Under the pieces are notes generated by a model. The model saw nothing but the letters and a program-made list of their open reading frames with translations. It had not been told where the DNA came from and searched no databases. From the IMG/VR virus record IMGVR_UViG_3300033072_000529: a DNA stretch of 64,000 bases, one strand, 5' to 3'. This DNA is from a virus. Lineage: Duplodnaviria; Caudoviricetes. Of this stretch, positions 1-58,525 are shown piece after piece (positions within the stretch are counted from its first letter, which is position 1; every line of letters begins with the position of its first letter). A program made the translations under genes and the position numbers.

Positions 1-54
1 AGAATTTTTCGATATAATTCATAGAATTTTTCGATATAATTCACAGAATTTTTC
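1..54. repeat. 22-bp tandem repeat AGAATTTTTCGATATAATTCA(T/C), about 2.5 copies, may continue off the left edge
   Basis: Copies start at 1, 23 and 45 (third partial); no spacers between copies. Confidence 0.85.
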
Positions 55-57
55 GGA

Positions 58-85
58 TTGACAAAGTGTATAAAGGAGGTAATAT
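58..85 (+). promoter_or_regulatory. sigma70-type early promoter
   Basis: TTGACA(58-63)-16 bp-TAATAT(80-85), 9 nt before ATG 95; same 16-bp spacing as the downstream promoter family. Confidence 0.5.
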
Positions 86-94
86 AAGGGTATC

Positions 95-283
95 ATGGAT
101 AAACTTGATACACTATTGGAGTCCTTGGAGACGTTGATTGCAGATCGCATTAAGAACGCCTATAATAGGGGTGTATGTCATGGGGATAGTGATAAGCTTC
201 TGGAATCAGAACTGGAGGCGGAGGATGCAATCCTTGCTACCAAACAAGAAGAATTGATGGATCAAATCTTTAATTGCGTATAA
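95..283 (+). CDS. small acidic hypothetical protein
   Basis: 62-aa ORF directly after promoter. Confidence 0.6.
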   Translation: MDKLDTLLESLETLIADRIKNAYNRGVCHGDSDKLLESELEAEDAILATKQEELMDQIFNCV

Positions 284-288
284 ATCAT

Positions 289-489
289 ATGGTAAACATT
301 CTAGACATACTAACGCCGGATGAATTGTTTTATAAACCATCCTTGGAAGAATGCTTGAAAAAGCAAAAGGTATGGACACGTTACATACGTCTATTGACAA
401 GGATGTATGATAAAGCCGTTCAAATGGATAATGAACTGGCTGTGCGATGTCATGGGATGAAAAACGGGAGGATGCTTCATACTTGTTAA
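289..489 (+). CDS. small hypothetical protein
   Basis: ORF track 274-489; ATG 289 follows the previous stop by 5 nt. Confidence 0.45.
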   Translation: MVNILDILTPDELFYKPSLEECLKKQKVWTRYIRLLTRMYDKAVQMDNELAVRCHGMKNGRMLHTC

Positions 490-573
490 ATGGTTTGAAG
501 TATCATACTGAATCAATGCGTTCTAACTGAATGATTCATAATGAGGGGGAATAAGAAAAGAATTAAAAATGAT

Positions 574-601
574 TTGATTGGTAGTCGATAAGGTTTATAC
601 T
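574..601 (+). promoter_or_regulatory. early promoter, repeat family copy 1
   Basis: TTGATT-16 bp-TATACT with GATAAGGTT before the -10; ATG 610 is 8 nt downstream. Confidence 0.7.
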
Positions 602-609
602 ACTGGAAG

Positions 610-750
610 ATGAAGACTAAACTGGAACTGGAACTGGAATACGTAGAAGCCAAAAAGCATTTCGAAGCTACTGGCGACTATGGCTGGATGGCCAGCGTAG
701 CCTATGCGTTGCATGCAAAGCACTACGCTGGAGAAAATGAATCAAAATAA
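610..750 (+). CDS. 46-aa hypothetical early protein (MKTKLELELEYVEAKKHF...), below the ORF-track cutoff
   Basis: Translated by hand; fills the space between two promoter copies, its stop lying in the UP element of the next. Confidence 0.7.
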   Translation: MKTKLELELEYVEAKKHFEATGDYGWMASVAYALHAKHYAGENESK

Positions 751-781
751 GATTTGATCCGCTCCAGATATCGTTTATAAT
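745..781 (+). promoter_or_regulatory. early promoter, copy 2
   Basis: AAATAAGAT-TTGATC-16 bp-TATAAT; 37-bp near-identical to 1052-1088. Confidence 0.8.
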
Positions 782-790
782 GTTTGCCTT

Positions 791-1057
791 ATGAGATCGA
801 AAAAATGGTTTATGAAAGAACTGGCAAACGTGACACGGTTGACACATTCCAATGAATGGTCTTTGTCTCAGTATGAGATGGAAAGACTACGGGCACGGGA
901 TGAAGCGGATGATGAAGAAGAATATGATCGCGAAAATCGCGAACTGGAATACTTCTATAAGGTGGGCAAACTACGACAACATAAACGGTCGTTAGAGAAA
1001 CGATATGCTCGCCTTGTCGCCTTGCTTGAAACCAATCTGCCAAAAAAACTGAAATAA
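791..1057 (+). CDS. charged, coiled-coil hypothetical early protein
   Basis: 88-aa ORF, ATG 9 nt after TATAAT. Confidence 0.7.
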   Translation: MRSKKWFMKELANVTRLTHSNEWSLSQYEMERLRARDEADDEEEYDRENRELEYFYKVGKLRQHKRSLEKRYARLVALLETNLPKKLK

Positions 1058-1088
1058 GATTTGATCCTCTCCAGATATCGTTTATAAT
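1052..1088 (+). promoter_or_regulatory. early promoter, copy 3
   Basis: AAATAAGAT-TTGATC-16 bp-TATAAT, one mismatch to copy 2. Confidence 0.8.
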
Positions 1089-1125
1089 CCCCCTGTCAGT
1101 AGAACATCACAAAAACAAATAGACT

Positions 1126-2148
1126 ATGGAAATCAATCCTTGCTTTGCACACATTGTCGGCCAAACGAACGCTAAACGCCAGTTGTCCCTTTCCATTGCA
1201 CAAGTATCCCATGGCGGGGATATGCTGTCCCCTTTCCTGAAAGGGGCACGTGGTACGGGCAAAACAGCGATTACGCAAGCCTATATCACAGGACTCAAAA
1301 AGGCATGGGAAGAACGTGGCGAACCTCTCCATGACTCCGCTGTGCTGTGGTTTGATTCGCCTAATGAATTTCGTCTGTCAGACTCTGCCCATTGGTCGGA
1401 TATCCGCCGTTGGTTCCTTATGGAAGGGCCGGGCATCCTGGTGATCGACGAATGTCACGAATGGAGCAACACGGTGCAACATGCCACTATTCAAAGCGCC
1501 ATTCGCAAGGCTCTTGATCGCCAGACTGGCGAGGGGCTGAAACCGTTCAAAGATGACGAATATCTGTACTTCACGCGTCGCGAAAAGTGCATTGTATTTC
1601 TCACGAACCACGACGACAAGGTAGATTCTGCCATTGCCTCGCGCTTTTCGTCCATCGACTTGGCCCGTTATTCCCTGCCCGAAATGCGGCAGATCATCGG
1701 AAACATATTCGTTAAAAACGAATATGAGGCTGAAAATGAAACCGTCATTGACCTGATTGCACGTGCTGCCCGTGGCGTAGTGCGGGGAGTAGTCGATAAC
1801 ATGATCCGCGATGGAATCAAGCCCCTACTGGCAACCAAGGGCACCAATGTTGTCACCTTTGAAACCGCTGTTAATGCCATGGTGATGAAATCTGTCTTCC
1901 CCCGTGGCTTGCACGTGTATGAAGTCGATTGTTTGCAGACCCTGGAGACAGGGACACGGGAAGGGAAGCCAGCCATGGACAAAAGCGAAATCCTGACGGC
2001 TGTTCCTGACATGGCCAATCACTGGCGCTCCTCCGCTGCTTTCCTCGCTTTTGACAAGCTGGCAGTCCCTACTGCCAAGGGATTGGCAATCACAGCTAAG
2101 GGTGTGCAATATCTCCGCATGATCCGTGATTATCAATTCATTGAATAG
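1126..2148 (+). CDS. ruvB: RuvB-like AAA+ ATPase (Holliday-junction branch-migration family)
   Basis: F..IVGQ..AK.QL N-terminus, Walker A GARGTGKT, Walker B LVIDECH, Arg finger ASRF, Y...E...I, ARG..R sensor 2, C-terminal T.KG..IT.KG..YL winged-helix end. Confidence 0.75.
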   Translation: MEINPCFAHIVGQTNAKRQLSLSIAQVSHGGDMLSPFLKGARGTGKTAITQAYITGLKKAWEERGEPLHDSAVLWFDSPNEFRLSDSAHWSDIRRWFLMEGPGILVIDECHEWSNTVQHATIQSAIRKALDRQTGEGLKPFKDDEYLYFTRREKCIVFLTNHDDKVDSAIASRFSSIDLARYSLPEMRQIIGNIFVKNEYEAENETVIDLIARAARGVVRGVVDNMIRDGIKPLLATKGTNVVTFETAVNAMVMKSVFPRGLHVYEVDCLQTLETGTREGKPAMDKSEILTAVPDMANHWRSSAAFLAFDKLAVPTAKGLAITAKGVQYLRMIRDYQFIE

Positions 2149-2162
2149 CGCAAAATAAACTC

Positions 2163-2190
2163 TTGCGCTTTCGGATAAATCGTTTATAAT
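2163..2190 (+). promoter_or_regulatory. early promoter, copy 4
   Basis: TTGCGC-16 bp-TATAAT with GATAAATCGTT before the -10 and AAAATAAA upstream. Confidence 0.7.
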
Positions 2191-2269
2191 CTCCAAGTAA
2201 GGTTCAATCCCTTTCATTCAGTAGCCAAACAAAATCGAAAATCAGTCAAACATACACCGCCAAAAACAT

Positions 2270-2788
2270 ATGCTTAACGTAACGCTCACTATCACACTTG
2301 CTCAGCTTCGCGATATGATTTCCCAGGTAGGGGAAGAACCGACGTTTGCCCTTATCGGCAGTTTCTACACTCGCTGCCGGGATGCTGGCATTCCCGTTGC
2401 CTCCACTCCCCCCGCACGTGTCCCCAACGTGTCCCCCTCGGCACCTGCTACCCCGCCCCCCGCCCCCGTTATCGGGCCGTTTGAATCCTGCTATCTGCGC
2501 CTTTCGGGCAATTCCCGTATGCGTCATTCCCGCACGGATATTTCCCGCGAAGCTTGTGCCTTGGCGTTCATTCGTGAGAAATATGCCTTTGCACTCACCC
2601 CTAGTGGCACAATCAAGCCAGAATTCGCTGGCACCGTGGCACCTGCTACTACGGCACCTGCAAGCGAGGGTGAAACGGTCTATGATTCTGCCCAGGAAAG
2701 CGAATCACTCCCCGCCCCTGAAACGGTGGACTTGGCAGCTGTATATGCTGCCCCCTATGATCCCGCCACCGTAGCGGCTGGCGAATAA
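2270..2788 (+). CDS. Pro/Ala-rich hypothetical early protein
   Basis: 172-aa ORF between promoter and terminator; acidic low-complexity tail. Confidence 0.7.
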   Translation: MLNVTLTITLAQLRDMISQVGEEPTFALIGSFYTRCRDAGIPVASTPPARVPNVSPSAPATPPPAPVIGPFESCYLRLSGNSRMRHSRTDISREACALAFIREKYAFALTPSGTIKPEFAGTVAPATTAPASEGETVYDSAQESESLPAPETVDLAAVYAAPYDPATVAAGE

Positions 2789-2804
2789 ACAACCAAGTCA
2801 AACG

Positions 2805-2840
2805 CCCCTAAGGATGAAATTTCATCCTTAGGGGTTTTTT
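2805..2840 (+). terminator. intrinsic terminator (perfect 30-bp palindrome + T6)
   Basis: CCCCTAAGGATGAAA/TTTCATCCTTAGGGG followed by TTTTTT. Confidence 0.85.
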
Positions 2841-2899
2841 CGTGGAAAATTGCGGGAGTACTAGGTCAGGCCCCTAAGCACCCAGCCCAGCAAATGCAA

Positions 2900-3110
2900 C
2901 ATATACATAAAGTCATACATCTTTATACAAGTCATACATCCTTCACATTTATATAAAAATATAAAATTACCTACCTTATTTTATATTTTTTTTTTACTAA
3001 AAATCGAAAATAAAATCTACCTCGAAAATAAAAAATTTTTTATAATATAAAAATAGTTTTTACCCATCGGAGACAGGCATCCTAAAGTTTATAAAGTTCG
3101 AGATTTATGA
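2900..3110. other. very AT-rich non-coding tract with short direct repeats
   Basis: AAGTCATACATC x2, TCGAAAATAAAA x2, poly-T run; no ORF. Confidence 0.5.
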
Positions 3111-3114
3111 TTTA

Positions 3115-3936
3115 TTAGTATTTAAGTTTTTTGCCACCTGGGAGGGTTAGTTTAGGATCAGGTATTTTATATATGTCGGAGTATTTTTTGGCTTTAGCTT
3201 TTGATCCAGGGGATATTGCATAGGCAAGGGGATCAGATATGACATAAGTCCCATCGGATCGTTTCATAATGTTTGCATCATGTAAATCAAGATCACCCAT
3301 AGTATTTCCTACAGTTTTGTATTCATCCATATGATTACGTAGGAAATCGATATCATTTAATAGTTGTAGGACATTAGGATTATTTGTGGGTAAGGTATTG
3401 TTGATTTTATGGTCCCTGATTGTCTCGTATTTGGCGATATCATTGTATATATATGATGCATCATTGCCTCCGTCGATATATCCTTTATATTCTGCAATGA
3501 TATCATTTAATTGTTCAATAGTATACTCGTATTTTATATTCAAGCATTGTTCAATTATATTGAACTGTTGTTTGGATAGGTGTACTAATTTTTCGATTTT
3601 GAGATAATATAGGGATTCCTCTACTAGGCTGCGCATGAACCGGGGATATATTTTACGGGGTTTGTCATAGAATTTAGGAAACGAAGGGCGGGGATTTTGT
3701 AGTACAAATCTAACGAAGCGTAGGTATGCGATATCTTGTTTAAATAGTTTCAGGACATAGTTCCAAGAGGGGTGATCTAATACCATGGCGAATGCTCCTT
3801 TGCCTGCTACCTTACCGCCGTGTTTTTTAAACCTTAATAGGATTTCATCTAGATATAAATCATCATTGGCAGGATTAAGTAATATATCCTGTATGGTCGT
3901 GGTTTCAGATATTAGGAAGAAGTCAAGGAAATTCAT
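3115..3936 (-). CDS. T7 gp0.7-like Ser/Thr protein kinase with internal-protein-type leader (paralog 1)
   Basis: GKGAF glycine loop, HP...VLK, catalytic DLHDANIM, VISDP; N-terminus MNFLDFFLISE. Confidence 0.8.
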   Translation of the reverse strand: MNFLDFFLISETTTIQDILLNPANDDLYLDEILLRFKKHGGKVAGKGAFAMVLDHPSWNYVLKLFKQDIAYLRFVRFVLQNPRPSFPKFYDKPRKIYPRFMRSLVEESLYYLKIEKLVHLSKQQFNIIEQCLNIKYEYTIEQLNDIIAEYKGYIDGGNDASYIYNDIAKYETIRDHKINNTLPTNNPNVLQLLNDIDFLRNHMDEYKTVGNTMGDLDLHDANIMKRSDGTYVISDPLAYAISPGSKAKAKKYSDIYKIPDPKLTLPGGKKLKY

Positions 3937-3944
3937 ATATATGA

Positions 3945-4766
3945 TTAGTATTTAAGTTTTTTGCCACCTGGGAGGTATGGTTTATATGAGGGGCTACTGT
4001 ATGCTGTCATCATTCTTTTTTGTTGGATATGTTCTCCTGAGTGATTAGCATGGGCAACAGGATCAGTTATTACATAAGACCCATTGGGGCGTACCATGAT
4101 ATTTTGGTTATGCATATCGAAATGTCCCATGGTGTTATCTGCAATCGGGTATTCTTCCACGGTCTGTTCCAAGAACTCCCAATCTTGTATCAATTGCTCT
4201 ATATGTTTGGATGCATTAGGTATAGTTCCATTTTCTAAATGCTGTTTGATTTCTTTATAATATTGTAAATCTTTTATTAGGGGACTGAATCCTTCAATAT
4301 GTTCCAGGTCTTGTTCCAATTTTCTTATTAGACGATTTATTTCTCGTAGATCGTATTCGTTTCTAATATCATATGCCATTCGGATATCGGTATATTCTTT
4401 ATGAGTTAGAGGTACTAGTTTTTCGATTTTGAGATAATATACTGCTTCATCTATTATAGGTCTACTATAACGAGGGTATATTTTACGGGGTTTATCATAG
4501 AATTTCGGAAAAGATGGTCGAGGATTTTGAAGTACAAATCTGACGAAGCGTAGATATGCAACATCATCAGTGAATATCTTCAAGACGTAATTCCAAGACG
4601 GATGATCTAATACGGTGGAGAAAGCACCAGTGTTATATACTTTACCGCCATGCTGTTTAAATACTCGTAGTATATCATCTAGTGCAATGTTATCATTGTC
4701 AGGATTCAACAGTATATCCTGTAAGGTAGTAGTCTCAGATAAAAGGAAGAAATCTAGGAAAGTCAT
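3945..4766 (-). CDS. T7 gp0.7-like Ser/Thr protein kinase with internal-protein-type leader (paralog 2)
   Basis: TGAFS, VLK, FDMHNQNIM...ITDPV (T7 gp0.7 recalled as FDMHSGNIM...ITDPV); N-terminus MTFLDFFLLSE. Confidence 0.8.
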   Translation of the reverse strand: MTFLDFFLLSETTTLQDILLNPDNDNIALDDILRVFKQHGGKVYNTGAFSTVLDHPSWNYVLKIFTDDVAYLRFVRFVLQNPRPSFPKFYDKPRKIYPRYSRPIIDEAVYYLKIEKLVPLTHKEYTDIRMAYDIRNEYDLREINRLIRKLEQDLEHIEGFSPLIKDLQYYKEIKQHLENGTIPNASKHIEQLIQDWEFLEQTVEEYPIADNTMGHFDMHNQNIMVRPNGSYVITDPVAHANHSGEHIQQKRMMTAYSSPSYKPYLPGGKKLKY

Positions 4767-4818
4767 ATACGATTAATGTATTTAATTACTTTTTAGAGAA
4801 GTATAAATATGATGATAT

Positions 4819-5769
4819 ATGATTAGCCCCAAAGAAAGTTTTCTGGATTTTTGGATCAATTACAACGTGATTCAAGAAAGAAAAGATGCTGAATATATTA
4901 CTAATGCTAAACAATGGGTAGATGAATGGGTGGATTGGGTGCATCATAAATTACCTAGAATAACACAATCAGTATATAATTATCGCAGCATAATACGTAA
5001 TAAAGAATATAGTGAGGATGATAAATCGTTTAGATATAATTCTCTAAAAAATACTATATATGATATGCGTCGATCTATATTTGGTATGGTTGACTTTCGG
5101 TATAATGCCGATTTAGCGGATGATCATATAGGGGGCGAGTATGATGCCGGTAAAGATCGAATTATAATGATTGATAATTTTGTGCACAATGCATTGCTTA
5201 GATTACAGAAATTAATGCTTGCATATATGCAACCCATACCTCGAACCGACGATAAACTATCAGCGGCTCAAATCAAAGAGGAACTTAGAACCTTAACAGA
5301 TAAAATCATTGCTCGAATATCTTCCAATCTATTCCGAAGTGTATTATTACATGAATATATTCATTCCATTCAAGATACTTTTTATAAGAAAGGTCACACG
5401 ACTATACAGGATAATGGTGATAATTGGACTGCCATAGAAGCCAAGAAAGCGGAGTTGTGGAAGAAGTGGAAGAGTAAAGTAGAAGCAGGAGAGTTAGAAT
5501 TAACTACAGCCATTCAGCTATATAATCAAGAATTACAGAAATGGGAACTGAGTAGATATTATAATGATCAACAAGAAGTTAATGCATATGTTCTACATAG
5601 TATATATGCTGTGGCAGATGGGGAGGATGTGTCTCAATTAAGTTTCCCTATTTTTAGGGCTAAGGTATTGGGTAAATTGGCCCGTACTCATAAAGAGGTA
5701 TTATCCAAGAAGAATAAAAAACGGATAGATAAACGTTTATATGATTATTGGTTGAAGACACAAGATTAG
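4819..5769 (+). CDS. putative zinc metallopeptidase (zincin) with leader
   Basis: G.Y motif, LLHEYIHSIQ, downstream YY...QEVNAY third ligand; ESFLDFW...IQE leader; TATAAATA upstream. Confidence 0.7.
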   Translation: MISPKESFLDFWINYNVIQERKDAEYITNAKQWVDEWVDWVHHKLPRITQSVYNYRSIIRNKEYSEDDKSFRYNSLKNTIYDMRRSIFGMVDFRYNADLADDHIGGEYDAGKDRIIMIDNFVHNALLRLQKLMLAYMQPIPRTDDKLSAAQIKEELRTLTDKIIARISSNLFRSVLLHEYIHSIQDTFYKKGHTTIQDNGDNWTAIEAKKAELWKKWKSKVEAGELELTTAIQLYNQELQKWELSRYYNDQQEVNAYVLHSIYAVADGEDVSQLSFPIFRAKVLGKLARTHKEVLSKKNKKRIDKRLYDYWLKTQD

Positions 5770-5788
5770 AATTACAGTAAATAATCAT

Positions 5789-7708
5789 ATGTCCTTTTTA
5801 GATTTCTATATGTCATATACGCCCTTATGGGAAAGCAGTATATATGATGATATAGGTGATGCTGCTAATAGTAGAGAATTATGGCAGATGGCTAAGGATA
5901 TGCGGGCGCATCCGTCTGACTATGCTGATAAATTCAATTTTGTGGATATGTTATGGGGTAATACTAACTCCTATACAGTATATCCATCCGATGATGGTAA
6001 ATCGGTGATTTATAAACAAATATATAAAGACTCTAAAACTTATATACCTTCATCATATGATCAACCGGATAAAAATATAGTAGCTAAACTTAGTAAGAAA
6101 AATATAGAAAAAGCGGTTCATGTTATTGTGGATTTATATAATGATCGACTTATGACCATATGGACTAAGCAGATTCAGATTGCTAAAAATAAAATCAAGC
6201 AACTTCGTAAAGATTGGGTAGATGATTTACCACAATTAAGAAAAGAAGCTACATCGGAAGAGGAATACTTGGCACAGAAAAAGGCACTACAGAAAATATA
6301 TAGAAAATCATACATCACACAAGAGAAAGCCTTAAACATCGCCACACAATTAAAAGATAAATGGACTAAAGATTATTATCCTAAACTTAAGAGTAATACG
6401 TTTGATGATATATGGGCACTATCATCTAAAGGTACTATACTTATGAATAATACTAATAAAATACCGGGTTATCCACAAGGGTTTAATAGTATATCAATGG
6501 ATATGAATAACATGTATGATGATTGGAATCGTATCATATTCCAGCCTGAACTTTTTTTCGATGATACTGATTATTCAAATACGGAATCATATGGAGACTT
6601 CGATGCTAGTAAAGGAGCATCCTATGAATTCACAAAATATTTGAAGGCTAATTTTCGAGATATAACAAAAACCCCTGCAATAAAATTACCATTACCCCGT
6701 GAGCCTTTAACAGATAAGGAATGGTATAAAATATTCAAAGAAAACAATATAACAACTTCATATATATATGAAATATTAATTCAAACAAAATATGATTCAC
6801 CAGTTCACCCTGAATTAATAGATAAACAATTGAAATTCTTACCGTATAATGTATTACAGAAAATATATATATCTGGTGAATCTCCTGTTAAATTAGCAAT
6901 ACAATCGTGTACTCATCGTAATAAAGGTTGGTTCAGTGAAGGTCCACATGGTGTTATTCATAGTGGTATACAAAACCCTGAATATGGTATACCATATCAA
7001 CCCACAAAAAAAGAAGCTTATAACTGGTTATTATATAACTCTAACAAAGGGAAACAATATGATAATTCGGATGCACGTAATAGTATGACATTATTGAATT
7101 GGCCTAGTTATATGATTAAACTGGCGTGTGAAAAAACCGGAGTGGATTACTTAGACTTAACTGATTCCCAACTATTGTCATTTGCCGATATGTTGGCTTT
7201 ACGATGGTTCTGTTTTAATATAAAAAGCACATTCTGGAATAAAGAAAGAACTGTTCATGGACCTGCTGGTGAATCTAGATTATTTAAACCGTTGGCACAT
7301 GTAGTACATATAACTGGCGCTGATTTACCTAATGGTTTAAAGACATCTCCTGAAAAAGCATTTGAACAATTGAATGAGCGCAAACGTAAAGAACAAGATG
7401 AAAAATATGCAAAAGATGAAGATATTAAATTTGATACGTATCCACAGTATCAGCCATTACCAGGGGTTCAGGTGATAACCAATCAGAAGCAATTGAAAAT
7501 CGAGGGAGAGCGAATGAATCACTGTGTTGGTGGTTACGGGAATTCATGTACCATGGGATCATCGTTAATATTAGCACTACCTAATTCAACGGCTGAACTC
7601 GACCCAAAAACACTTAGAGTATACCAACATTTTGGTATGACTAATTCTGACCCAGATGACTCTGATGTAGAATTACTAAAGCAATGGATCGCCTTGAATA
7701 AGAAATAG
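5789..7708 (+). CDS. putative internal virion protein with C-terminal PcfJ-like domain
   Basis: L..EGERMNHCVGGY...T.EL...Q..G..N; leader MSFLDFY...LWES. Confidence 0.65.
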   Translation: MSFLDFYMSYTPLWESSIYDDIGDAANSRELWQMAKDMRAHPSDYADKFNFVDMLWGNTNSYTVYPSDDGKSVIYKQIYKDSKTYIPSSYDQPDKNIVAKLSKKNIEKAVHVIVDLYNDRLMTIWTKQIQIAKNKIKQLRKDWVDDLPQLRKEATSEEEYLAQKKALQKIYRKSYITQEKALNIATQLKDKWTKDYYPKLKSNTFDDIWALSSKGTILMNNTNKIPGYPQGFNSISMDMNNMYDDWNRIIFQPELFFDDTDYSNTESYGDFDASKGASYEFTKYLKANFRDITKTPAIKLPLPREPLTDKEWYKIFKENNITTSYIYEILIQTKYDSPVHPELIDKQLKFLPYNVLQKIYISGESPVKLAIQSCTHRNKGWFSEGPHGVIHSGIQNPEYGIPYQPTKKEAYNWLLYNSNKGKQYDNSDARNSMTLLNWPSYMIKLACEKTGVDYLDLTDSQLLSFADMLALRWFCFNIKSTFWNKERTVHGPAGESRLFKPLAHVVHITGADLPNGLKTSPEKAFEQLNERKRKEQDEKYAKDEDIKFDTYPQYQPLPGVQVITNQKQLKIEGERMNHCVGGYGNSCTMGSSLILALPNSTAELDPKTLRVYQHFGMTNSDPDDSDVELLKQWIALNKK

Positions 7709-7709
7709 T

Positions 7710-8861
7710 TTATAATTGATCTTGTTGTGCCAATTCTTCTATTTTATGCATATCCCATTCCGGTGCATTTCGGTTGCCATATTGGATTGCATATCGTAGA
7801 TATTTTATGAGTTTTTCAACCTTAGTGTCGGCTTTTTTAATTCCTGCATCTTCGGGAGGAATCATAGCTATAGTTTGCGGGGTTATAGCTGTATAACCAT
7901 TCGTATAATATTGTTTACCTGATTTACCTACGATATGCATCATCAAATTATAGTCTTCCTCGGGATCAGATAATTCTGTGATGGACTTGACTTTACCTCT
8001 TAAAACTATGTTTACATTTAACAGAGTTGATTTGGTATCAGCGCGTATATATGCTTTTAAGTGATCAGCTAAACTGAATATGTATGGGAAATATTTCTCT
8101 TTAGGCTTAGTAACCGCAACACCTTGGGGTTCCGATAACTTATGTTGATTCGGAGAATAGGTTATTATGATATGTCCTTTATCATGCTTATCAAATAGTA
8201 CATACATAGTGCGGTCGGAATCAGTGCCCATCACACCCGTTGATCCGCAGTTTTTCATCAACCCTGCAACTAACTCGCATTTATCTCCTGCATCTATCCA
8301 TCTATACCCATCCGCAAAAGTCAATGCAGGTTCTTTATCTTGAAATATCTTCTTACGATTATATTTCTCAGTTGCATCCTTAAATGATAAATCTTTATAT
8401 TGATTTACATCCGTCACATGTCCTCTCAATATATCTCGAATAAGCGTGTTCTTAAAAAACACATTTTGCCATATCAATTCCTTTATTTCATATAGATATT
8501 GATATTTCTCCTCCGTCATATATTCATCCGTAACCTTATCTGGATCAATATCAATATCTAAATGATTTAATATTTTTATAAACTGCTCCTTATTTAGATT
8601 ATCACATGCCGTATAGGCTTTGACATACTCCGCAATATCGGGGTCTGATCTTCTGAACGAATGAGTTATATGATACCACCACTTGGGGTCTTTCGCAGCA
8701 GACTCTGTATATGTATGATATTCCTTGAACCATCGTGCTATAGTATATGACTTCTCGCCTAATTTGTCATAAAACAATTTAGCTATAATAGGTGGGAATC
8801 CTAAATTGATAACACTCTGTTTGGATTCTAATAAAGGTTGATAATAATCTATAAATCTCAT
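7710..8861 (-). CDS. putative internal virion protein with divergent PcfJ-like domain
   Basis: MKNCG...YVL.D....H......G....KPKEKY.PYI; leader MRFIDYYQPLLES. Confidence 0.55.
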   Translation of the reverse strand: MRFIDYYQPLLESKQSVINLGFPPIIAKLFYDKLGEKSYTIARWFKEYHTYTESAAKDPKWWYHITHSFRRSDPDIAEYVKAYTACDNLNKEQFIKILNHLDIDIDPDKVTDEYMTEEKYQYLYEIKELIWQNVFFKNTLIRDILRGHVTDVNQYKDLSFKDATEKYNRKKIFQDKEPALTFADGYRWIDAGDKCELVAGLMKNCGSTGVMGTDSDRTMYVLFDKHDKGHIIITYSPNQHKLSEPQGVAVTKPKEKYFPYIFSLADHLKAYIRADTKSTLLNVNIVLRGKVKSITELSDPEEDYNLMMHIVGKSGKQYYTNGYTAITPQTIAMIPPEDAGIKKADTKVEKLIKYLRYAIQYGNRNAPEWDMHKIEELAQQDQL

Positions 8862-8866
8862 ATATA

Positions 8867-11767
8867 TTACATTATAAAAATCTTATTAACATTCGCGCCT
8901 AATATATTATCAACTGTATAGGTTAGATCATTTTCTTTCACGGCAAGAATTTCATTTATGTCATCCTGTATGTTTGGTTGTAATCTTGGACCATTGGGTT
9001 TACCCCAAGCATTACTAGTTACCAACATAGGGGGTAAATCACGTTTGAATTTGACTTCTCCTTGTATAATATATTGTGCAAATATTTCCAATACAAATTC
9101 GGTTAAATTGTTGATATTTCTGTCTCTAGCGGATTTGAATGTACCTATGGCATAAGCCGTATTCATCAACACTTTATTATAATTAGGAGTTGGTCTAGGG
9201 GTTGCAATATTATAATGGTACTTTTCAAAATTCGGAGCAACACCATATGCAATTTGTGCAACTTCTGATAAACATGCATACACTTCTTTTACCAATAACC
9301 GCATATGCTTGGGTCTATTGTAGTAATCCCTATTACCTATCAATAATGCATGTCCTAATCTATGGGCCAGGGTCCATGCGGTGGTAGGAACTCTATTTGC
9401 TCCTATATTGTTAGTATATATGGCAGTGATATGATCCTTTTTAGGAGTGATGTTTATACCTAATGTATCATGTAATTGTTCAAGGGATACTTCGCCAGTT
9501 TCAAATGCTTTTTTACCTGGGGCAGACCGAACCATATATAGATCAAAATCATAAGAAGTTTTATCCCATAGTTTTCTGATTTTCTGTATACCTGCTTGAG
9601 ATGTTAATATACCCTGCGAAGGTTTGTCCCAACCATGTGCTTTTGCTTTAGGCGACCAATCCCCATGAAATTCTATATCTCCTATAGGTGCTTCTTGTAA
9701 CATGGTTTGATAGAAATCTGTGAATGACTCCCCTTGAGCATATCTAGCCTGTACACCCATTGCTGCTTTAGGTTTAACACCCATTGCTTTTAATGCTTGT
9801 GCTTTCTTAGCAGGATCAACATTATGTACTATCTGAGATACCTGTTCGATTTCTTCTGGTTCCGGCGCAGGCTTTGGTTTCTCTTTAGATTTAACCCCTG
9901 CTTTTTTTAATACCTGTTCCCATGATAGCTTATCCGATTGCATACCAAATTCAAATGTGCATTCCTCTAGATTTATATTATACGAATCCTGTAACAGAAA
10001 TTCTACCATATCTATATAGTTTTGATCTATACATGATGTTTGATTCCAAACAGAGAACACAGGATATCCTCCTAAATAACCGAATCTACCAATAGGATTA
10101 TTAGGAAAAGTGGATAAGAATGATCCCCTGCCTATAGTGGCATCATCGCCAGTTCTACTTAAGTATTGTATAAAATCTTCGGGCGGTTCCCCAACAGCAT
10201 ACACATTATCAAAATCTTCTATTTTTGCTTCTTCTAAATATACTTGTTGTAATATATCTAGTAAATCCCAATGAGTCATACTCTTATCATCGGACCACGC
10301 CATATAATCTTTCAACATGATAAAGACTATCATACCGCTTAGTTGTGTTTTATATATAGTATCAGGGTTTTCCAATAATACATCTGCTGATACTTGTGTA
10401 GATTCGCCTTGAGCATATCTAGCTTGCACGCCCATTGCAGCTTTAGGTTTAACACCCATTGCTTTTAATGCCTGGGCTTTCTTGGCAGGGTCTACATTGT
10501 GCACTATATGATCGGTAGATATATTCGTGGGTTTAGCCGCATCATGTTTATAATATAACTTACGGAATTGCGCAGCAGTTAATACTTTATCGTCTGCGGT
10601 GCCCGTATTAGTCGTTCCCGTGGTGAATTCATAAAACATTTTAGCTGGATCAATATTAAGCAATTTCAACATTTTAACAGTCTGTACAACCTGTTCGGGT
10701 TTAATATTAGGTGTACTCCAATATGATACAACTTTGCTAGATTCTGATACTCTACCTAATAAACAATCAGGATTATGTTGCACAAAACTATTTCTAAAAA
10801 ACCATGCCTCTTTTTTGTATCCAGTATTTATATTGGACAAAGACCCTTTAATCACAAGTTCAGCTATATCATAATCACATTTGGCATTACGTTTAATACA
10901 GTGAAGCATGACAAAAATATCGCCATGAGTATGGCCAGCATTAGTACTATATATAATGGCACTGGGTGTTAGTATAAAGGTGATGGCATCGCTATTATCA
11001 AACCATTCATCAGGATTTTCTTTTATAACCATCTTGTTAAAGGTATCTATAAAAGATTCTCCTTTAGCATATCTAGCTTGTACGCCCATTGCAGCCTTAG
11101 GTTTGATACCTTTATCTTTCATCATTGCTTTTCGTATGTTAGGATCAACCATGGTATGGGCTTGATCTTCAACATTAGACCAATCTACATCATCAACAGC
11201 ATTTGATGATCCATTATCTACTAACTCCCACAATTGTTCTATATTATATTGTTGGGGATGAACCATATTGGAATCTTTGTCCTTTGCGAATAGTTCGTAT
11301 TTGAAATTACTTGGGTCAATCTTTAGAGTATCATATATAAATGATTCCAATGCCCGAAGATTATCATGGGTTAAATCAGATATATTATTCCATAAGGATA
11401 ATTGATTGTTGCTTCTCCACACTCTACCTATCAATATTCCAAGGTTATATGCTCTGGAAAGTTCCAACAATTTAGATCGTTTGCCTGTGTTTTCTTGTAA
11501 GAATGATTTTATATCAGTAAAATCTCCTTGGAATCGATATGTGGACCACTCCTCTAATTGCTGGAAATGTAGATTATTATTCTGCTCTTTACTGAATTCC
11601 CGTAATGCTTTATACATATAAGCATGTTTTTCCGCCACGATTTTATTCACTGCCCACATAGTGAATTTAGGCGATATAGTGAAAGGTATAGCATTATTAG
11701 ATACCCATGATATACCATTCATGTTATCAGGACTTTCATTTACTATATAATGTTCGAAGAAATTCAT
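8867..11767 (-). CDS. four-module repeat protein / putative polyprotein (three paralogous domains plus a HRLGH zincin-like domain)
   Basis: Start reassigned from 11821 to ATG 11767 (MNFFEHYIVNES) with TAAATA 7 nt upstream; three KPKAAMGVQARYAxGES linkers. Confidence 0.75.
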   Translation of the reverse strand: MNFFEHYIVNESPDNMNGISWVSNNAIPFTISPKFTMWAVNKIVAEKHAYMYKALREFSKEQNNNLHFQQLEEWSTYRFQGDFTDIKSFLQENTGKRSKLLELSRAYNLGILIGRVWRSNNQLSLWNNISDLTHDNLRALESFIYDTLKIDPSNFKYELFAKDKDSNMVHPQQYNIEQLWELVDNGSSNAVDDVDWSNVEDQAHTMVDPNIRKAMMKDKGIKPKAAMGVQARYAKGESFIDTFNKMVIKENPDEWFDNSDAITFILTPSAIIYSTNAGHTHGDIFVMLHCIKRNAKCDYDIAELVIKGSLSNINTGYKKEAWFFRNSFVQHNPDCLLGRVSESSKVVSYWSTPNIKPEQVVQTVKMLKLLNIDPAKMFYEFTTGTTNTGTADDKVLTAAQFRKLYYKHDAAKPTNISTDHIVHNVDPAKKAQALKAMGVKPKAAMGVQARYAQGESTQVSADVLLENPDTIYKTQLSGMIVFIMLKDYMAWSDDKSMTHWDLLDILQQVYLEEAKIEDFDNVYAVGEPPEDFIQYLSRTGDDATIGRGSFLSTFPNNPIGRFGYLGGYPVFSVWNQTSCIDQNYIDMVEFLLQDSYNINLEECTFEFGMQSDKLSWEQVLKKAGVKSKEKPKPAPEPEEIEQVSQIVHNVDPAKKAQALKAMGVKPKAAMGVQARYAQGESFTDFYQTMLQEAPIGDIEFHGDWSPKAKAHGWDKPSQGILTSQAGIQKIRKLWDKTSYDFDLYMVRSAPGKKAFETGEVSLEQLHDTLGINITPKKDHITAIYTNNIGANRVPTTAWTLAHRLGHALLIGNRDYYNRPKHMRLLVKEVYACLSEVAQIAYGVAPNFEKYHYNIATPRPTPNYNKVLMNTAYAIGTFKSARDRNINNLTEFVLEIFAQYIIQGEVKFKRDLPPMLVTSNAWGKPNGPRLQPNIQDDINEILAVKENDLTYTVDNILGANVNKIFIM
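9725..11110 (-). repeat. three copies of the linker repeat (about 9725-9830, 10402-10508, 11057-11110)
   Basis: GCATATCTAGC.TG.AC.CCCATTGC.GC.TTAGGTTT recurs three times on the + strand, differing mainly at third codon positions. Confidence 0.9.
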
Positions 11768-11777
11768 ATAAGGATAT

Positions 11778-12341
11778 TTATTTTGTAATGAGGAATCTAT
11801 AGTCATAGCCGACTGTCTCACTTCCTCTTATACCCCAATAATTATGTAACTCCTCAGGATTATTCACATGTTTAATAACTTTATCATGCTGTGTTATATA
11901 TAAACTATATCCCGCATCTATGAACCGTTGGAAATTTCTTTTATAAAAGTTGAATCCTTTATCTGATAATCCTGAATCAGATTGCACTTTTTTAAATTTG
12001 GGTAATAAGAAATTTATATAGAAATGAAACATCAAGGAGTCTCCTTTCAATACAGGTTTAGCTTGAGTTGATTCAGTTGTTATACCATTCGCTCCTTTAG
12101 CAATACCGCTGTATTTTCCGACCATTTGTTCATTATTGATTATAACATATTGCTTATTGTTAGAATATTCTTGGTTACTATTTTCCATGACATCAAATGT
12201 CATATAATTAACACTGAACGTGGCAATAGTATGGAATGAACTGGTTTGCCATAAAGGTCGTTTATCCCAGGAACCAAAATCAACCTCTCCTAACCGAAGA
12301 GGCATCTCTAATAAAGGTTTATAGAATTCTAAAAATGTCAT
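11778..12341 (-). CDS. GNAT-fold-like protein with leader
   Basis: KG.SLM..FY...SD..LS.KG..FY.R pattern; leader MTFLEFYKPLLEM. Confidence 0.5.
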   Translation of the reverse strand: MTFLEFYKPLLEMPLRLGEVDFGSWDKRPLWQTSSFHTIATFSVNYMTFDVMENSNQEYSNNKQYVIINNEQMVGKYSGIAKGANGITTESTQAKPVLKGDSLMFHFYINFLLPKFKKVQSDSGLSDKGFNFYKRNFQRFIDAGYSLYITQHDKVIKHVNNPEELHNYWGIRGSETVGYDYRFLITK

Positions 12342-12345
12342 AGTA

Positions 12346-12876
12346 TTATTGTAATAATTTCTGCCAAAAGGCGGGCGTTCCCATTACATATTTGGTGAGT
12401 TTTCCAATGCCTGGAAAGTTTAGAATAATACCACCATCATCTGAATAATCTATAAATGTGGCATCTCCTAATATATTTAATTGCAATGCTGCATCCAGGG
12501 CATATTTATTTGGAGGCGGCATCATTCCTGCACCTGATAAAAAAGGTACTACATTAGCCGTACACACCCCATATAATGGTACATTTGTTTGAACTAATGC
12601 CCGAAGTGTTTTCGTTTTACGCATCATATTTCCCGCCATAGCTACCAATTTCATATAATCATTATTATTTTTTTTGGCAGCTATCCAACCAGTATCATTG
12701 CCGTAAAATGTCCAATGTTTCGCTTTAGATATGAATGTTTCTTTTGGCCAGGAATAGCCCGTGGATTTAATATATTCATTACGGAATACATCATAGGCTT
12801 TATCTAAATCCATGTTGGGAATAGGCGCAGATTCTACCATTAACGTATAATGGATATAAAACTCTAGAAATGTCAT
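12346..12876 (-). CDS. hypothetical putative internal protein
   Basis: Leader MTFLEFY...MVES; no confident catalytic motif. Confidence 0.6.
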   Translation of the reverse strand: MTFLEFYIHYTLMVESAPIPNMDLDKAYDVFRNEYIKSTGYSWPKETFISKAKHWTFYGNDTGWIAAKKNNNDYMKLVAMAGNMMRKTKTLRALVQTNVPLYGVCTANVVPFLSGAGMMPPPNKYALDAALQLNILGDATFIDYSDDGGIILNFPGIGKLTKYVMGTPAFWQKLLQ

Positions 12877-12892
12877 AACATCAATAGTATTC

Positions 12893-13315
12893 TTACACTC
12901 TAGCAGTTTGTATTAGTTGCTCTACTTCTTCTTGTGTTCCTGCACTGATCAACGATTTAAAAAAGGTTGCCAATTGTCCATCATCCATATGTTGTAGACC
13001 GGGTAAAGTTTTTGAAGGAACACGAAAAACATTAGCCAATAGGAATTTACCATACCGTATGATGTTCTTGTCAGAGGACGCTAGAATGGCTCTCTCGCCC
13101 TGTTCAAAGCGTCCACGCACATTGTGAATAGCATGTGCCACAGCAGTCACACCAGACGTTGCAATAGCCTTCAAATACTTCTCCTTAGTCTCAGGCAACA
13201 TCTGCCCTTGCTTAATATTCCAATTAGCAAATGCTCTACGAGCCGAAATATGTCGGGGTTTTTTAACTGGTTCAATGGATTCCACCAGAATAGAAAGTAG
13301 TTTATCGAATTTCAT
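12893..13315 (-). CDS. hypothetical putative internal protein
   Basis: Leader MKFDKLLSILVES; TAAATA 7 nt upstream. Confidence 0.65.
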   Translation of the reverse strand: MKFDKLLSILVESIEPVKKPRHISARRAFANWNIKQGQMLPETKEKYLKAIATSGVTAVAHAIHNVRGRFEQGERAILASSDKNIIRYGKFLLANVFRVPSKTLPGLQHMDDGQLATFFKSLISAGTQEEVEQLIQTARV

Positions 13316-30745: not shown

Positions 30746-30772
30746 TTCGCATAGCACCATATAAATACTTCT

Positions 30773-42887: not shown

Positions 42888-43577
42888 ATGCAACAATATA
42901 ATGTAGTCCGAAAACTTATAGTAGAATCACCTATGTATGATTTGAAATATGAAACTATACAGGAAAATAGATCAGAGGAAAGAAAACTCATGATAAATGG
43001 ACGGTATTTGATGCTTAATAGAATCAATAAAAATCGTCGTATATATGAATCTTCTGAGATGATCCCAGCTATAGAAGCATTCCATAAAGATTTCATAATG
43101 GATAATCGAGGTGGGGGTGAATGTAACCATAGCCCTGATCCAGAAGTAAAGTTGGACAGATTGGCCCATAAAATAGTATCGCTAACTCGCGATCCTCAAG
43201 ACGAGGATTTTTATATAGGTCGTTCAGAAATTATCACCGCGAATCCCCCAGGTCGCATATTAGAAGGTCTTATCAAGCATAATATGAAATTCGGGTTGAG
43301 CAGTAAAGCCTTGGGTATAATCGAGGAAGGCAGTGATGGTAATAAAGTCAAGAAACCGATTCTGTTATCAGTGGATGCGGTGTATGATCCATCTGCAAGT
43401 CCATGTTTCATTAATGGTATCTATGAAAATAGGGAATATATCATAGGCAATGACGGCAAGGCACATGAGGCATTCACTCAATTGACTAAAGATTTATCTA
43501 AATATCCCTCAAGACATTCTGATGCAATCAAAGCCCATATCGTGGAATCTTTCAAGAAGATGTTAGCAAATATATAA
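42888..43577 (+). CDS. gp21: prohead protease, gp21-like
   Basis: N.NRRIY, GECNH, H.I..L, P.G.IL..L, FGLSSKALG, D.V.DPSA. Confidence 0.92.
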   Translation: MQQYNVVRKLIVESPMYDLKYETIQENRSEERKLMINGRYLMLNRINKNRRIYESSEMIPAIEAFHKDFIMDNRGGGECNHSPDPEVKLDRLAHKIVSLTRDPQDEDFYIGRSEIITANPPGRILEGLIKHNMKFGLSSKALGIIEEGSDGNKVKKPILLSVDAVYDPSASPCFINGIYENREYIIGNDGKAHEAFTQLTKDLSKYPSRHSDAIKAHIVESFKKMLANI

Positions 43578-44290: not shown

Positions 44291-44315
44291 TATCTATTTG
44301 TATAAATAAACTTAT

Positions 44316-45209
44316 ATGGAAAACGAATTGTCCTCAATTTTAGAATCAATTGATAAAGAAATCTTTACAGAAGATGTGAAGAAACAATTGAGTGCCTATG
44401 TAGAATCTCTTACTGAGAAAAAAGCTGAAAAGCTGGTGTCTGAACGGACACATTTAGCAGTAGAAGCCGCATTGAAAACTCAAGATGAAGATTATGCTAG
44501 AAAATTAGCACAATATGCAGAAGCAGTCGATATAGATCGAACCAATAAAACTAAACTTATTGTTAAGCATCTAAATGAAGACTTCAAGGCCAAAATGAAA
44601 CAACTATCTGAGGCATACGAAAGTATATTGAAGAAGAAAGCAGTGGACACCCAAATGCACATAGTGCGTTCTGTTGATGCCTTCTTGGATCAATATATTG
44701 AACAAACCTGTCCAGTTGGTATGATCGCAGAGGCTGCAAAGAATAATATTGCTGCTAAGACTCTGGATAGCATTCGCAATGCCGTTGGTATTGATGCTAA
44801 ACTAGTGAGCGAAAATGTTAAGACTGCCGTAAAAGATGGTAAAGCCAAGATAGATGCATTAGCTAAGGAAAAGCAACGCTTAGCTAGAGAAAATGCAAAT
44901 ATCAAAAAGGCTGCACTATTAGCAGAAGCAACTATCAATCTTCCTAAAGCGAAAGCTAAATTTATAGTGGAACAGCTTAAAGACAAGCCTTTGGACTTTG
45001 TAAAAGCTAATATCAAGTTTGTATCAGAAATGTTTGATCGTCCGATTAATCGTAGACAATCAGCATTCGATGCTACACCTGTTAATAACGTGGATCGGCA
45101 AAAGGTAGCTGATGAGTTAATTAGAGAAAACGCTGAGAATCAGCCAACTTATTTAGGTAGCACTGACGCTATCTCAATGTACATGGAAGGCTTGAAACAC
45201 AGACGCTAA
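44316..45209 (+). CDS. gp22: prohead scaffold, gp22-like
   Basis: Coiled-coil, VDAFLD..I, MYM..L end; between protease and major capsid gene. Confidence 0.8.
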   Translation: MENELSSILESIDKEIFTEDVKKQLSAYVESLTEKKAEKLVSERTHLAVEAALKTQDEDYARKLAQYAEAVDIDRTNKTKLIVKHLNEDFKAKMKQLSEAYESILKKKAVDTQMHIVRSVDAFLDQYIEQTCPVGMIAEAAKNNIAAKTLDSIRNAVGIDAKLVSENVKTAVKDGKAKIDALAKEKQRLARENANIKKAALLAEATINLPKAKAKFIVEQLKDKPLDFVKANIKFVSEMFDRPINRRQSAFDATPVNNVDRQKVADELIRENAENQPTYLGSTDAISMYMEGLKHRR

Positions 45210-45254: not shown

Positions 45255-46847
45255 ATGCTAAACCTAGCCTCAAACTACGTAGATTCTGCCCCTTCCTTGA
45301 TCAACAAGGAACGAGGTCGCCAATTAATCGCTAAGTGGAAACCAGTATTGGAACACTCAGACAGTCAAACCAAACCTATTATAGGTGCACACAAGCAACT
45401 TACAACCGCTATCGTCTTGGAAAGCCAAGAAAGATGGTTGGCTGAAAACGGACACATGTCCCGTCGTCTAATGCAAGAAGCCCTTCCTACCGGAAGTGGT
45501 GCAGGTGGTCCTCCACTTGTATCAGGTGGAACAAATACTGCATTCGGCTCCGTTAATAACGGTCAATACGGTGGTATTGGTCAAGCTACCAATGGTGCTG
45601 GTATTAATACCAACTCCGACTGGTATGCACCAGGAGACGCCCGTCTTCCTAAGACCGTTATTCCGATGATCCGTCGTACCTTCCCTGAATTGATCACCCA
45701 CGAAATCGTTGGTGTTCAACCAATGGCAGGTCCAGTCGGTCTTGCGTTCGCTCTTCGTTATTTCTATGATGAAGACCCTCTTGCATGTTCACCTTATAAT
45801 GATCGCGGCTGTTCAGGTTCCAAAACCTATCCAACTGGTCACTTAGGCACTTCAAATAACGAAGTTGGTTATAACCAACTATTCACCGGTCACACTGGTA
45901 TTACTGCTGCTGGCTTGTCTGGTCTAGGTCTAACAACCTCCACCACTGGTTCTGCTACTGCATTCCCATTCGTTCCTGGCCAAGATACTGGTGTTGCTCA
46001 ATTGCTATCACATTTTGAAGCATCTTCCAATATCCCAACTATGTCACTTAAGATTGACAAGCAAGCTGTTGAAGCTGGTACTCGTCGTCTTGCTACTAGC
46101 TGGTCTATCGAACTTGAACAAGATATCATGAACATGAACGGAATCGACATCGATTCCGAAATGACAAATGCTATGTCTTATGAAATTCAAGCAGAAATCG
46201 ACCGTGAAATGGTTGTTCGCATGATTCAAGCTGCTCTAAATGCTGGTAATGGTACAGGTTATTCAATCTGGAAGCCAGGTCTTGCAGATGGTCGTTGGCT
46301 CGCTGAACGTGGTGTAGATTTCTACTCCAAGATCATCATCGAAGCTAACCGTATCGCTATCCGTAACCGTCGTGGTCCTGCTAACTTCATCATCGCTACT
46401 CCTAAGGTTTGTACTATCCTACAACTCCTAAAAGAGTTCGCTCCGTTCAATATCAACTCTGCTGTGCAAACTCACCCTAATGGTGTTGCTCGCGTAGGTA
46501 CTCTTGCTGGTCAGTTCACCCTGTATCGCGATACCCGTACCGAAGCACAATACCTATCAGGTGTTCGTGCTGAGCCAGTAGAATATGCTCTATTGGGTTA
46601 TAAAGGTGCTGAATTCTGGGATACCGGTTTGATCTACTGCCCATATATTCCAGTGCTTGTACAACGTACAATCGCTCCTCATACCTTCACCCCAATCGTG
46701 GGTATGATGACCCGTTATGGTGTGGTTGACCACATGTTTGGTATAGAAAACTTCTACCACATCATTATCGCTAAAGATTTGAATAGAACAGTGACATGGG
46801 ATGGATGCGCAGCATCTGCCTGCTCACCAGTCTATTTGGGTCAATAA
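45255..46847 (+). CDS. gp23: major capsid protein, gp23-like
   Basis: KW.PVL, IRR.FP.LI..EIVGVQPM.GPVGL.FALR, EIQAEIDRE, RRG..NF, GYKG...D.G..YCPYIP, F.P..G..TRYG. Confidence 0.97.
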   Translation: MLNLASNYVDSAPSLINKERGRQLIAKWKPVLEHSDSQTKPIIGAHKQLTTAIVLESQERWLAENGHMSRRLMQEALPTGSGAGGPPLVSGGTNTAFGSVNNGQYGGIGQATNGAGINTNSDWYAPGDARLPKTVIPMIRRTFPELITHEIVGVQPMAGPVGLAFALRYFYDEDPLACSPYNDRGCSGSKTYPTGHLGTSNNEVGYNQLFTGHTGITAAGLSGLGLTTSTTGSATAFPFVPGQDTGVAQLLSHFEASSNIPTMSLKIDKQAVEAGTRRLATSWSIELEQDIMNMNGIDIDSEMTNAMSYEIQAEIDREMVVRMIQAALNAGNGTGYSIWKPGLADGRWLAERGVDFYSKIIIEANRIAIRNRRGPANFIIATPKVCTILQLLKEFAPFNINSAVQTHPNGVARVGTLAGQFTLYRDTRTEAQYLSGVRAEPVEYALLGYKGAEFWDTGLIYCPYIPVLVQRTIAPHTFTPIVGMMTRYGVVDHMFGIENFYHIIIAKDLNRTVTWDGCAASACSPVYLGQ

Positions 46848-58480: not shown

Positions 58481-58525
58481 ATGCATTACTTAACAAAATA
58501 AATCAGAATTGTATAAATAAAGTAT

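Follow-up and report, generated by a model that had tools for sequence, protein, structure and literature searches.

At positions 3115-4766 of a 64,000-nt window (the whole stretch of DNA that was analysed) from a Caudoviricetes virus, IMG/VR record IMGVR_UViG_3300033072_000529, lie two adjacent genes, kinA and kinB, predicted to encode protein kinases of the family of phage T7 gp0.7 (T7K). The window is part of a 272-kb contig. The genes are minus-strand open reading frames (ORFs) arranged head to tail with a spacing of 8 nt, and the duplication period is 830 bp.

3945..4766, minus strand: kinB, upstream T7K-family kinase paralogue, 273 aa (ORF; PHROG 15752 and 2828; Pfam PF27024)
3115..3936, minus strand: kinA, 273-aa downstream paralogue and the faster-evolving of the two (ORF; PHROG 15752)
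4101..4118, minus strand: kinB catalytic loop D-M-H-N-Q-N, with D217 and N222 (motif in family alignment, hhalign)
3271..3288, minus strand: kinA catalytic loop D-L-H-D-A-N (motif in family alignment)
4056..4064, minus strand: kinB DPV motif, the DFG-equivalent of T7K (motif defined in PMC13645617)
3226..3234, minus strand: kinA DPL variant of the DPV motif (motif defined in PMC13645617)

The two products align without gaps and are identical at 144 of 273 residues (53%; BLASTP E 1e-105). Identity is unevenly distributed: 82% in the leader (residues 1-11), 75% over the N-terminal helices and N-lobe (12-120), 24% in a helical region (121-205), 54% in the catalytic core (206-240), 21% in the tail (241-264) and 100% over the last nine residues, LPGGKKLKY, where 9/9 codons are also the same. 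The strings LDHPSWNYVLK and AYLRFVRFVLQNPRPSFPKFYDKPRKIYPR are present in both. Over the whole gene the same codon is used at 87 of the 144 identical residues and synonymous divergence (dS) is about 1.1-1.4, undefined in the helical region; ratios of nonsynonymous to synonymous divergence (dN/dS) by region are unusable because synonymous sites are saturated. A quick IQ-TREE phylogeny of 50 family members (a careful search did not finish) makes kinA and kinB sisters, with support of 99 in the approximate likelihood ratio test (SH-aLRT), and gives kinA the longer branch (0.55 vs 0.27). On this sequence evidence the pair is a lineage-specific tandem duplication of a stripped-down T7K-type (gp0.7 family) protein kinase.

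Kinase family and fold

PHROG 15752, annotated as a gp0.7-type kinase, matches kinA (E 1.4e-7) and kinB (E 2.6e-11); PHROG 2828, the T7K family itself, matches kinB (E 3.6e-5), and a precomputed annotation places Pfam PF27024 on kinB. A local copy of Pfam-A matched neither protein, and gave no match to aminoglycoside phosphotransferases (APH); a sequence-profile search of the Protein Data Bank (PDB) found nothing significant (best match E 0.21, unrelated). When a profile of 11 homologues is compared by hhalign with residues 49-220 of T7 gp0.7, the probability is 96.6% (E 5.7e-10, 161 columns), and the motifs pair in order (kinase profile, then T7): the G-loop (G-x-G-x-F, GNGHF), the VxK lysine (V-L-K, V-I-K), the FDMHxxNIM loop (FDMHNQNIM, FDMHSGNIM) and the metal-binding motif (ITDPV in both). 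The G-loop glycine, G47, aligns with T7K G76, and the T7K mutant G76F is catalytically dead. G47, K63, D217, N222 and D235 are invariant in family alignments of 11 and of 28 members.

We consider the placement of kinA and kinB in the T7K family sound on these comparisons. The initial annotation had described two 273-aa paralogues at these coordinates with near-identical N-lobes, intact catalytic motifs and an identical C-terminus encoded by identical DNA (a 32-nt run, see below), and all of this stands; its name for them, 'T7 gp0.7-like kinase', is supported by PHROG 15752, the hhalign alignment, PF27024 and the matches to Autographiviridae kinases among viral folds.

Both proteins end 36 residues past the DPV (kinB) or DPL (kinA) motif and therefore lack the C-terminal shut-off/DNA-binding domain of T7K; the alignment with T7K ends at its residue 220 of 359. 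The position of the autoinhibitory Ser216 of T7K is Ala here (DPV-A-H in kinB, DPL-A-Y in kinA). The T7K homologues of jumbophages (Salmonella phage Munch, Escherichia phage G17) likewise consist of the kinase domain only; they have lost the shut-off domain, the valine of DPV is less conserved in them and their function 'remains to be elucidated', and the paper that describes them mentions neither leader nor packaging for them (PMC13645617). kinA and kinB differ from these homologues in having no tblastn similarity to any isolated phage searched: kinB and two diverse family members had no match in 50,697 phage records, and a megablast of window positions 3000-12000 had none in the same records. 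Outside phages the T7K kinase domain is almost absent (PMC13645617). Searching 1.84 billion representatives with a profile yielded 3199 family members at E <= 1e-3 and 159 at E <= 1e-30.

AlphaFold models were obtained for kinB (mean predicted local distance difference test score, pLDDT, 82; predicted TM-score, pTM, 0.76) and kinA (pLDDT 87, pTM 0.82). Among predicted viral structures (BFVD), the top Foldseek matches are protein kinases of T7-like phages (E 1e-9 to 1e-7), including those of Pantoea SK1, Pectobacterium Q19 and Yersinia fPS-53 (Autographiviridae); A0A7L7SMK1, which the T7K paper (PMC13645617) discusses as a homologue, and RaK2 protein H6X4G3 (E 1e-6) are also matched.

On solved structures the two search programs differ, so that the outcome is mixed on one of the points that the initial annotation had named as counting against it, namely whether APH-like enzymes would be the best matches. 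Foldseek on the PDB weakly ranks aminoglycoside kinases first (APH(9) and APH(2''), E 4e-5 to 4e-4), with a TM score of about 0.29 and root-mean-square deviations (rmsd) of 14-20 Å, and VIA-align puts the protein kinases PKR, IRE1, CDK6 and Aurora A on top (Z 8.7-8.2), with APH(2'') at Z 6.7. Since its TM scores are low, the PDB search confirms a kinase fold and does not separate protein from small-molecule kinases. The D-x-H-x-x-N loop is also typical of aminoglycoside and choline kinases. That kinA and kinB are small-molecule kinases of this kind is nevertheless very improbable, given the poor superposition on APH, the VIA-align ranking, and the sequence and viral fold matches that point to T7K, a proven protein kinase (PMC13645617). 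The fold is generic protein-kinase-like, and the specific relationship is to T7K.

The most diverged part of the pair was modelled with confidence:

4152..4406, minus strand: kinB variable four-helix region, residues 121-205 (24% identity to kinA; helices pLDDT ~90)
3322..3576, minus strand: kinA variable four-helix region, residues 121-205 (identity by region; AlphaFold2 model)

Four confident helices (about residues 122-137, 140-156, 161-179 and 187-206) precede the catalytic loop, and their layout is the same in both models despite the low identity. With hardly anything beyond the DPV motif, the four helices account for most of a very small C-lobe; the diverged helical 'insert between the lobes' of the initial annotation was thus correct as to divergence and mistaken as to insertion. 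The region is also the most length-variable part of the family alignment. It could plausibly set substrate choice and, more speculatively, the combination of a conserved ATP-binding lobe with a diverged four-helix part may have let the two copies split or widen their substrate preference.

Leader and T4-type head machinery

Each kinase opens with an 11-residue leader that recurs on neighbouring genes:

4734..4766, minus strand: kinB leader MTFLDFFLLSE, a propeptide like a capsid-targeting sequence (CTS), with an L-x-E site (motif scan; pLDDT <50)
3904..3936, minus strand: kinA leader MNFLDFFLISE, CTS-like propeptide with an I-x-E site (motif scan)
3115..13315, both strands: cluster of 9-10 same-leader genes (motif scan, N-termini)
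4819, plus strand: leader gene for an HExxH protein (motif scan)
5789: leader gene with a C-terminal PcfJ-like domain (motif scan)
7710, 8867-11770, 11778 and 12346: further leader genes (motif scan)
12893 (possible cluster member) and 49868: looser leader versions (N-termini)

The common kinase start is M-(N/T)-F-L-D-F-F-L-(I/L)-S-E, and residues 1-11 are the least confident part of the kinB model. A six-frame motif scan finds the same leader type on seven further ORFs within 4819-12876, and the pattern M-x-F-[LIF]-[DE]-[FYH]-[FYW]...(L/I/V)-x-E opens 8-10 adjacent genes. All-against-all BLASTP detects no similarity among the leader-bearing proteins outside the leader. The leader is spelled with differing codons among these genes, so selection acts on the peptide.

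In phage T4 the CTS MKTYQEFIAE starts both IPII and IPIII (ipII and ipIII, read from the T4 record). The first ten residues are enough to bring foreign proteins into the T4 head; for targeting, positions 4 and 7 are important, and for cleavage by gp21, which cuts after Glu, positions 8 and 10; and relatives of T4 carry varied cargo behind CTS-like tags (PMC9026906). The leader described here differs in sequence (MxFLDFF..SE) and has the CTS shape: aromatic, x, acidic, aromatic, then (L/I)-x-E. The likeness to the T4 internal proteins IPI, IPII, IPIII and Alt, whose CTS is removed by gp21, extends from the type of tag to the unrelated payloads and the presence of a gp21-type protease. Judged by these sequence-level features, the leader has its nearest known counterpart in the CTS system of T4.

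The remainder of the window supplies the setting, and from its genes the source is predicted to be a distant T4-type jumbo myovirus.

42888..43577, plus strand: T4 gp21-type prohead protease, the expected leader-removing enzyme (Peptidase_S77, 49 bits, cut-off 27 bits; PHROG 207, E 8e-37)
45255..46847, plus strand: Gp23-type major capsid protein, with L-A-E at residues 62-64 (Pfam Gp23, 297 bits)

The capsid protein is about 31% identical to cyanomyovirus gp23, and the portal, baseplate wedge, sheath, tube and large terminase are also encoded. Sites of the (L/I)-x-E type occur at T4-like positions in the capsid protein, in the protease (I-V-E at residue 13) and in the product of the scaffold-position gene (44316-45209; I-L-E at residue 10). 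T4 gp23 loses 65 residues (PMC9026906).

Leader sharing is also seen in related uncultured phages. In locus L002 the kinase and five unrelated neighbouring genes start MKYKDFY, on a contig with a Peptidase_S77 gene (105 bits). Two closely related kinases of 477 and 486 aa, from L001 (10001-11434) and L003 (9926-11386), have different leaders (MQYSDFYNYLINE vs MIQLSDYAKLLNK..QE): the L001 kinase starts MQYSDFY, like other L001 genes, and the L003 kinase starts MIQLSDYAKLL, as do two genes downstream of it. Each leader matches other genes of its own contig, in effect a natural leader swap; the leader therefore follows the phage and not the kinase. At the C-terminus both of these kinases are extended by about 210 aa without a Pfam match.

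The leader could alternatively have nothing to do with the head, if kinA and kinB are ordinary cytoplasmic kinases, never packaged, that act on host or phage proteins in the producing cell; the shared N-terminus would then be a translation-start cassette, a recombination cassette or a family N-terminal helix. Leader-like starts are indeed widespread in the kinase family (M-x-F-K-x-F/Y opens 44 of 155 members by a loose rule), so the leader could in part be a helix of the family rather than a tag. Most related loci lack a same-leader neighbour: of the 20 with flanks, 14 have none within 8 kb and 6 have one, sharing at least 5 of 10 leader residues, although, as in T4, the remaining cargo genes might be located elsewhere. 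The site of action of T7K itself is the cytoplasm, and the word 'packaged' is absent from the paper on it (PMC13645617). A purely cytoplasmic role is harder to reconcile with a leader found on at least eight otherwise dissimilar window proteins, conserved as peptide and not as DNA, that ends in the type of site cut by the encoded gp21-type protease and behaves as a separable module in the L001/L003 swap. We regard this explanation as unlikely, yet as a serious competitor.

Two of the neighbouring leader genes have further features. In the HExxH protein (4819-4840, plus strand) the leader is offset by six residues (MISPKESFLDFW..), and the start region of its gene repeats, on the opposite strand, a 12-mer (CTAATCATATAT) that is found before the kinA ATG; the repeat may be a remnant of a duplication junction or due to chance. 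The protein at 8867-11770 (minus strand, about 967 aa; it probably begins at the ATG at 11770) holds three repeats of about 30 aa ending ..KAAMGVQARYA(Q/K)GES, each then followed by a leader-like stretch ending (L/I)-x-E: FIDTFNKMVIKE, VSADVLLE and FTDFYQTMLQE. Such a layout resembles a polyprotein made by the fusion of several tagged modules.

Late-type boxes and shared 3′ ends

The sequences flanking both kinases have further elements in common:

4779..4785, minus strand: TTAAATA late-type box, 12 nt 5′ of the kinB ATG
3949..3955, minus strand: TTAAATA late-type box, 12 nt 5′ of the kinA ATG, inside the last codons of kinB (K-L-K-Y-stop)
3944..3975, minus strand: 32-nt run identical to 3114-3145; kinB 3′ end, with LPGGKKLKY, stop and one base
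3114..3145, minus strand: 32-nt run identical to 3944-3975; kinA 3′ end, with no gene after it

The T4 late promoter is TATAAATA, which the TAAATA box resembles. TAAATA has 87 sites on the two strands of the window, and 36 of these lie 2-15 nt before a same-strand start (0.5 expected), covering 34 of the 53 window genes. The usual form of the box is (T/C/G)ATAAATA. Genes preceded by it include both kinases, those for the portal, capsid, sheath and baseplate, and the scaffold-position gene; the ligase gene, the homing endonuclease genes and a GC-richer block to the left of the kinases do without it. The signal lies in this position before start codons, not in the raw count of the exact T4 octamer, which is at chance in the window (16 found vs 17 expected). 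The TTAAATA variant of the kinases also occurs at three other genes. Candidate sigma-70 promoters were no more frequent than chance in a scan, and the 52 nt upstream of kinB contain none. We infer that the kinases are probably transcribed late with the structural genes, at a box spacing that is atypical for this phage.

The TAAATA box mostly ends 4-9 nt before the start, with no visible Shine-Dalgarno sequence (e.g. 30760-30772, 44301-44315, 58512-58525). Were this box to act as a late promoter like that of T4, the majority of late mRNAs would have little or no untranslated leader.

Upstream of both kinases stands TTAAATAC, then TAATC(A/G)TAT, then the ATG. A codon-identical 3′ end, in genes whose dS is high elsewhere, indicates an event or constraint at the DNA level beyond protein conservation. 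The location of the kinA box within the last codons of kinB explains such a constraint on kinB; downstream of kinA, after the same 3′ sequence, nothing coding follows. Given the shared upstream sequence and the box in the 3′ end, each unit starts and finishes with the same box, an arrangement that would favour unequal crossing-over and later gene conversion.

At the protein level the C-terminal motif, (L/I)(P/K)GGK, is conserved across the family, with G267 and G268 invariant. The last block of both models has confidence of 79-86, vs about 50 just before it, and forms a beta-bridge, which suggests that the GGK motif docks on the domain rather than forming a free basic tail. In most relatives it only begins a longer linker that is not present in kinA and kinB. 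The idea in the initial annotation that a basic tail might tether the kinase to DNA or act as an ejection tag is accordingly unsupported, the motif being family-conserved, docked-looking in the models and the start of a linker in relatives.

Among the 155 best family representatives, 72 (all among P0005-P0155) end ..D-D-(D/E)-(I/V)-P-F after a Lys/Pro-rich linker, and DDDIPF is the C-terminal docking tip of bacterial SSB, the protein that binds single-stranded DNA (PMC5872125). This suggests that many T7K-type kinases may be steered to SSB-partner proteins. The ..DDDIPF end is lacking in the clade that kinA and kinB make up with P0003 and P0004, their nearest relatives. A limited literature search found no report of an SSB tip on a phage kinase.

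Beyond kinA the genes change in character.

2804..2835, strand not assigned: strong terminator hairpin that separates kinA from the GC-richer, convergent genes

The GC-richer block (about 1-3000) has 44% vs 35% GC, and its genes are convergent with the kinases. In a search of 2400-5200, Rfam matched only the terminator hairpin, at chance level. The spacer of about 275 nt at 2836-3114, which marks the boundary between the late region (35% GC) and the GC-richer block (44%), is very AT-rich, has no ORF and contains the direct repeat AAGTCATACATC at 2910-2924 and 2929-2943.

Packaging, injection and the wider family

We lean slightly towards the view that kinA and kinB are tandem T7K-type kinases that are expressed late, loaded into the head by the leader, trimmed and injected with the DNA. 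By homology and intact motifs, both would be active protein kinases of the T7K family; by the position of the boxes, their transcription would start at late boxes of the TAAATA type, together with that of the structural genes. The first 11 residues would serve as a T4-style CTS that brings the kinases into the prohead core, where the gp21-type protease would cut the leaders after ..(I/L)-S-E. Loading and trimming are suggested by the analogy with T4, the tag on unrelated neighbours and the presence of the protease. The mature kinases, of about 30-31 kDa, would remain in the head, enter the cell with the DNA and phosphorylate host proteins before phage gene expression; by analogy with T7K, they might attack host takeover targets and defence proteins broadly. 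The description 'late-expressed, virion-packaged' in the initial annotation is on this account a reasonable inference from the TAAATA box, the leader common to unrelated neighbours and the gp21-type protease. In a limited search of the literature, no phage protein kinase was found to have been reported as packaged in virions.

Packaged kinases might instead act within the head or during assembly, phosphorylating core, scaffold or packaged proteins, and not be injected effectors. The tag and protease fit this equally well, and nothing in the sequence addresses ejection. The supply of ATP inside a sealed head is doubtful, and the neighbouring tagged genes look like effector enzymes (the HExxH protein, the PcfJ-like domain). 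The T4 precedents Alt and the internal proteins (IPs) are, moreover, ejected into the host (PMC9026906). An in-head role is therefore quite improbable.

Several observations weigh against late expression, packaging and injection of T7K-like kinases, in addition to the PDB ranking, the frequent leader-like starts and the missing same-leader neighbours described above. The box of the kinases is TTAAATA at 12 nt, and most genes have ATAAATA at 4-9 nt. The Ser216 site and the DNA-binding domain are absent, and T7K-like promiscuity is therefore not to be assumed. The phage is uncultured and has no close relative among the isolates in the phage collection searched.

If kinA and kinB are indeed packaged and injected, they combine the T7K kinase family with T4-style capsid targeting. 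T7K has an early promoter and belongs to Autographiviridae, in contrast to the late-type box, CTS-like leader, two tandem copies and T4-type myovirus seen here. The known enzymatic cargo of T4 is an ADP-ribosyltransferase, and the putative payload here is a protein kinase. Features that appear particular to this locus are the tandem pair, the diverged helical surface and the late box repeated at the 3′ ends.

As a hyper-promiscuous kinase, T7K has recently been shown to disable many defence systems of bacteria (PMC13645617). Homologues that were head-loaded and injected would be a general anti-defence weapon at time zero, before transcription, when the single incoming genome is most exposed. 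A protein kinase would thereby join the short list of enzymes that travel inside tailed-phage heads, and the layout of tag plus payload could be of use for engineering protein delivery by phages.

More tentatively, and with somewhat less confidence than for this one locus, the same account may be extended to the family. T7K-type kinases would then be a large, almost wholly uncultured family of pre-made, leader-tagged cargo of T4-type and jumbo phages, trimmed by the protease and injected to phosphorylate host and defence proteins before phage expression. The range of targets would be broadened by tandem duplication together with a helical surface that diverges fast, and the C-terminal copy of the SSB tip (..DDDIPF) would steer many relatives to host SSB partners.

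Multiple kinases also occur in other arrangements. Four single metagenomic proteins (P0021, P0045, P0117 and P0123) carry 4-6 tandem T7K-type kinase units; the units open (L/I)-x-E-L-x-G-(Y/V)-K or L-x-E-(L/M)-(T/I)-T-L-N-K, as do many single-domain members. These could be polyproteins cut at L-x-E, and from the sequences multi-kinase arrangements appear to be a habit of the family. On an activated-sludge contig (L041, 6471-13093), a kinase starting MKLQLILEQLYGVKKY has four neighbours of 219-323 aa that start MKL(Q/V/S)(x)ILE(x)L, possibly a further set of genes with a common leader, or else a battery of kinases.

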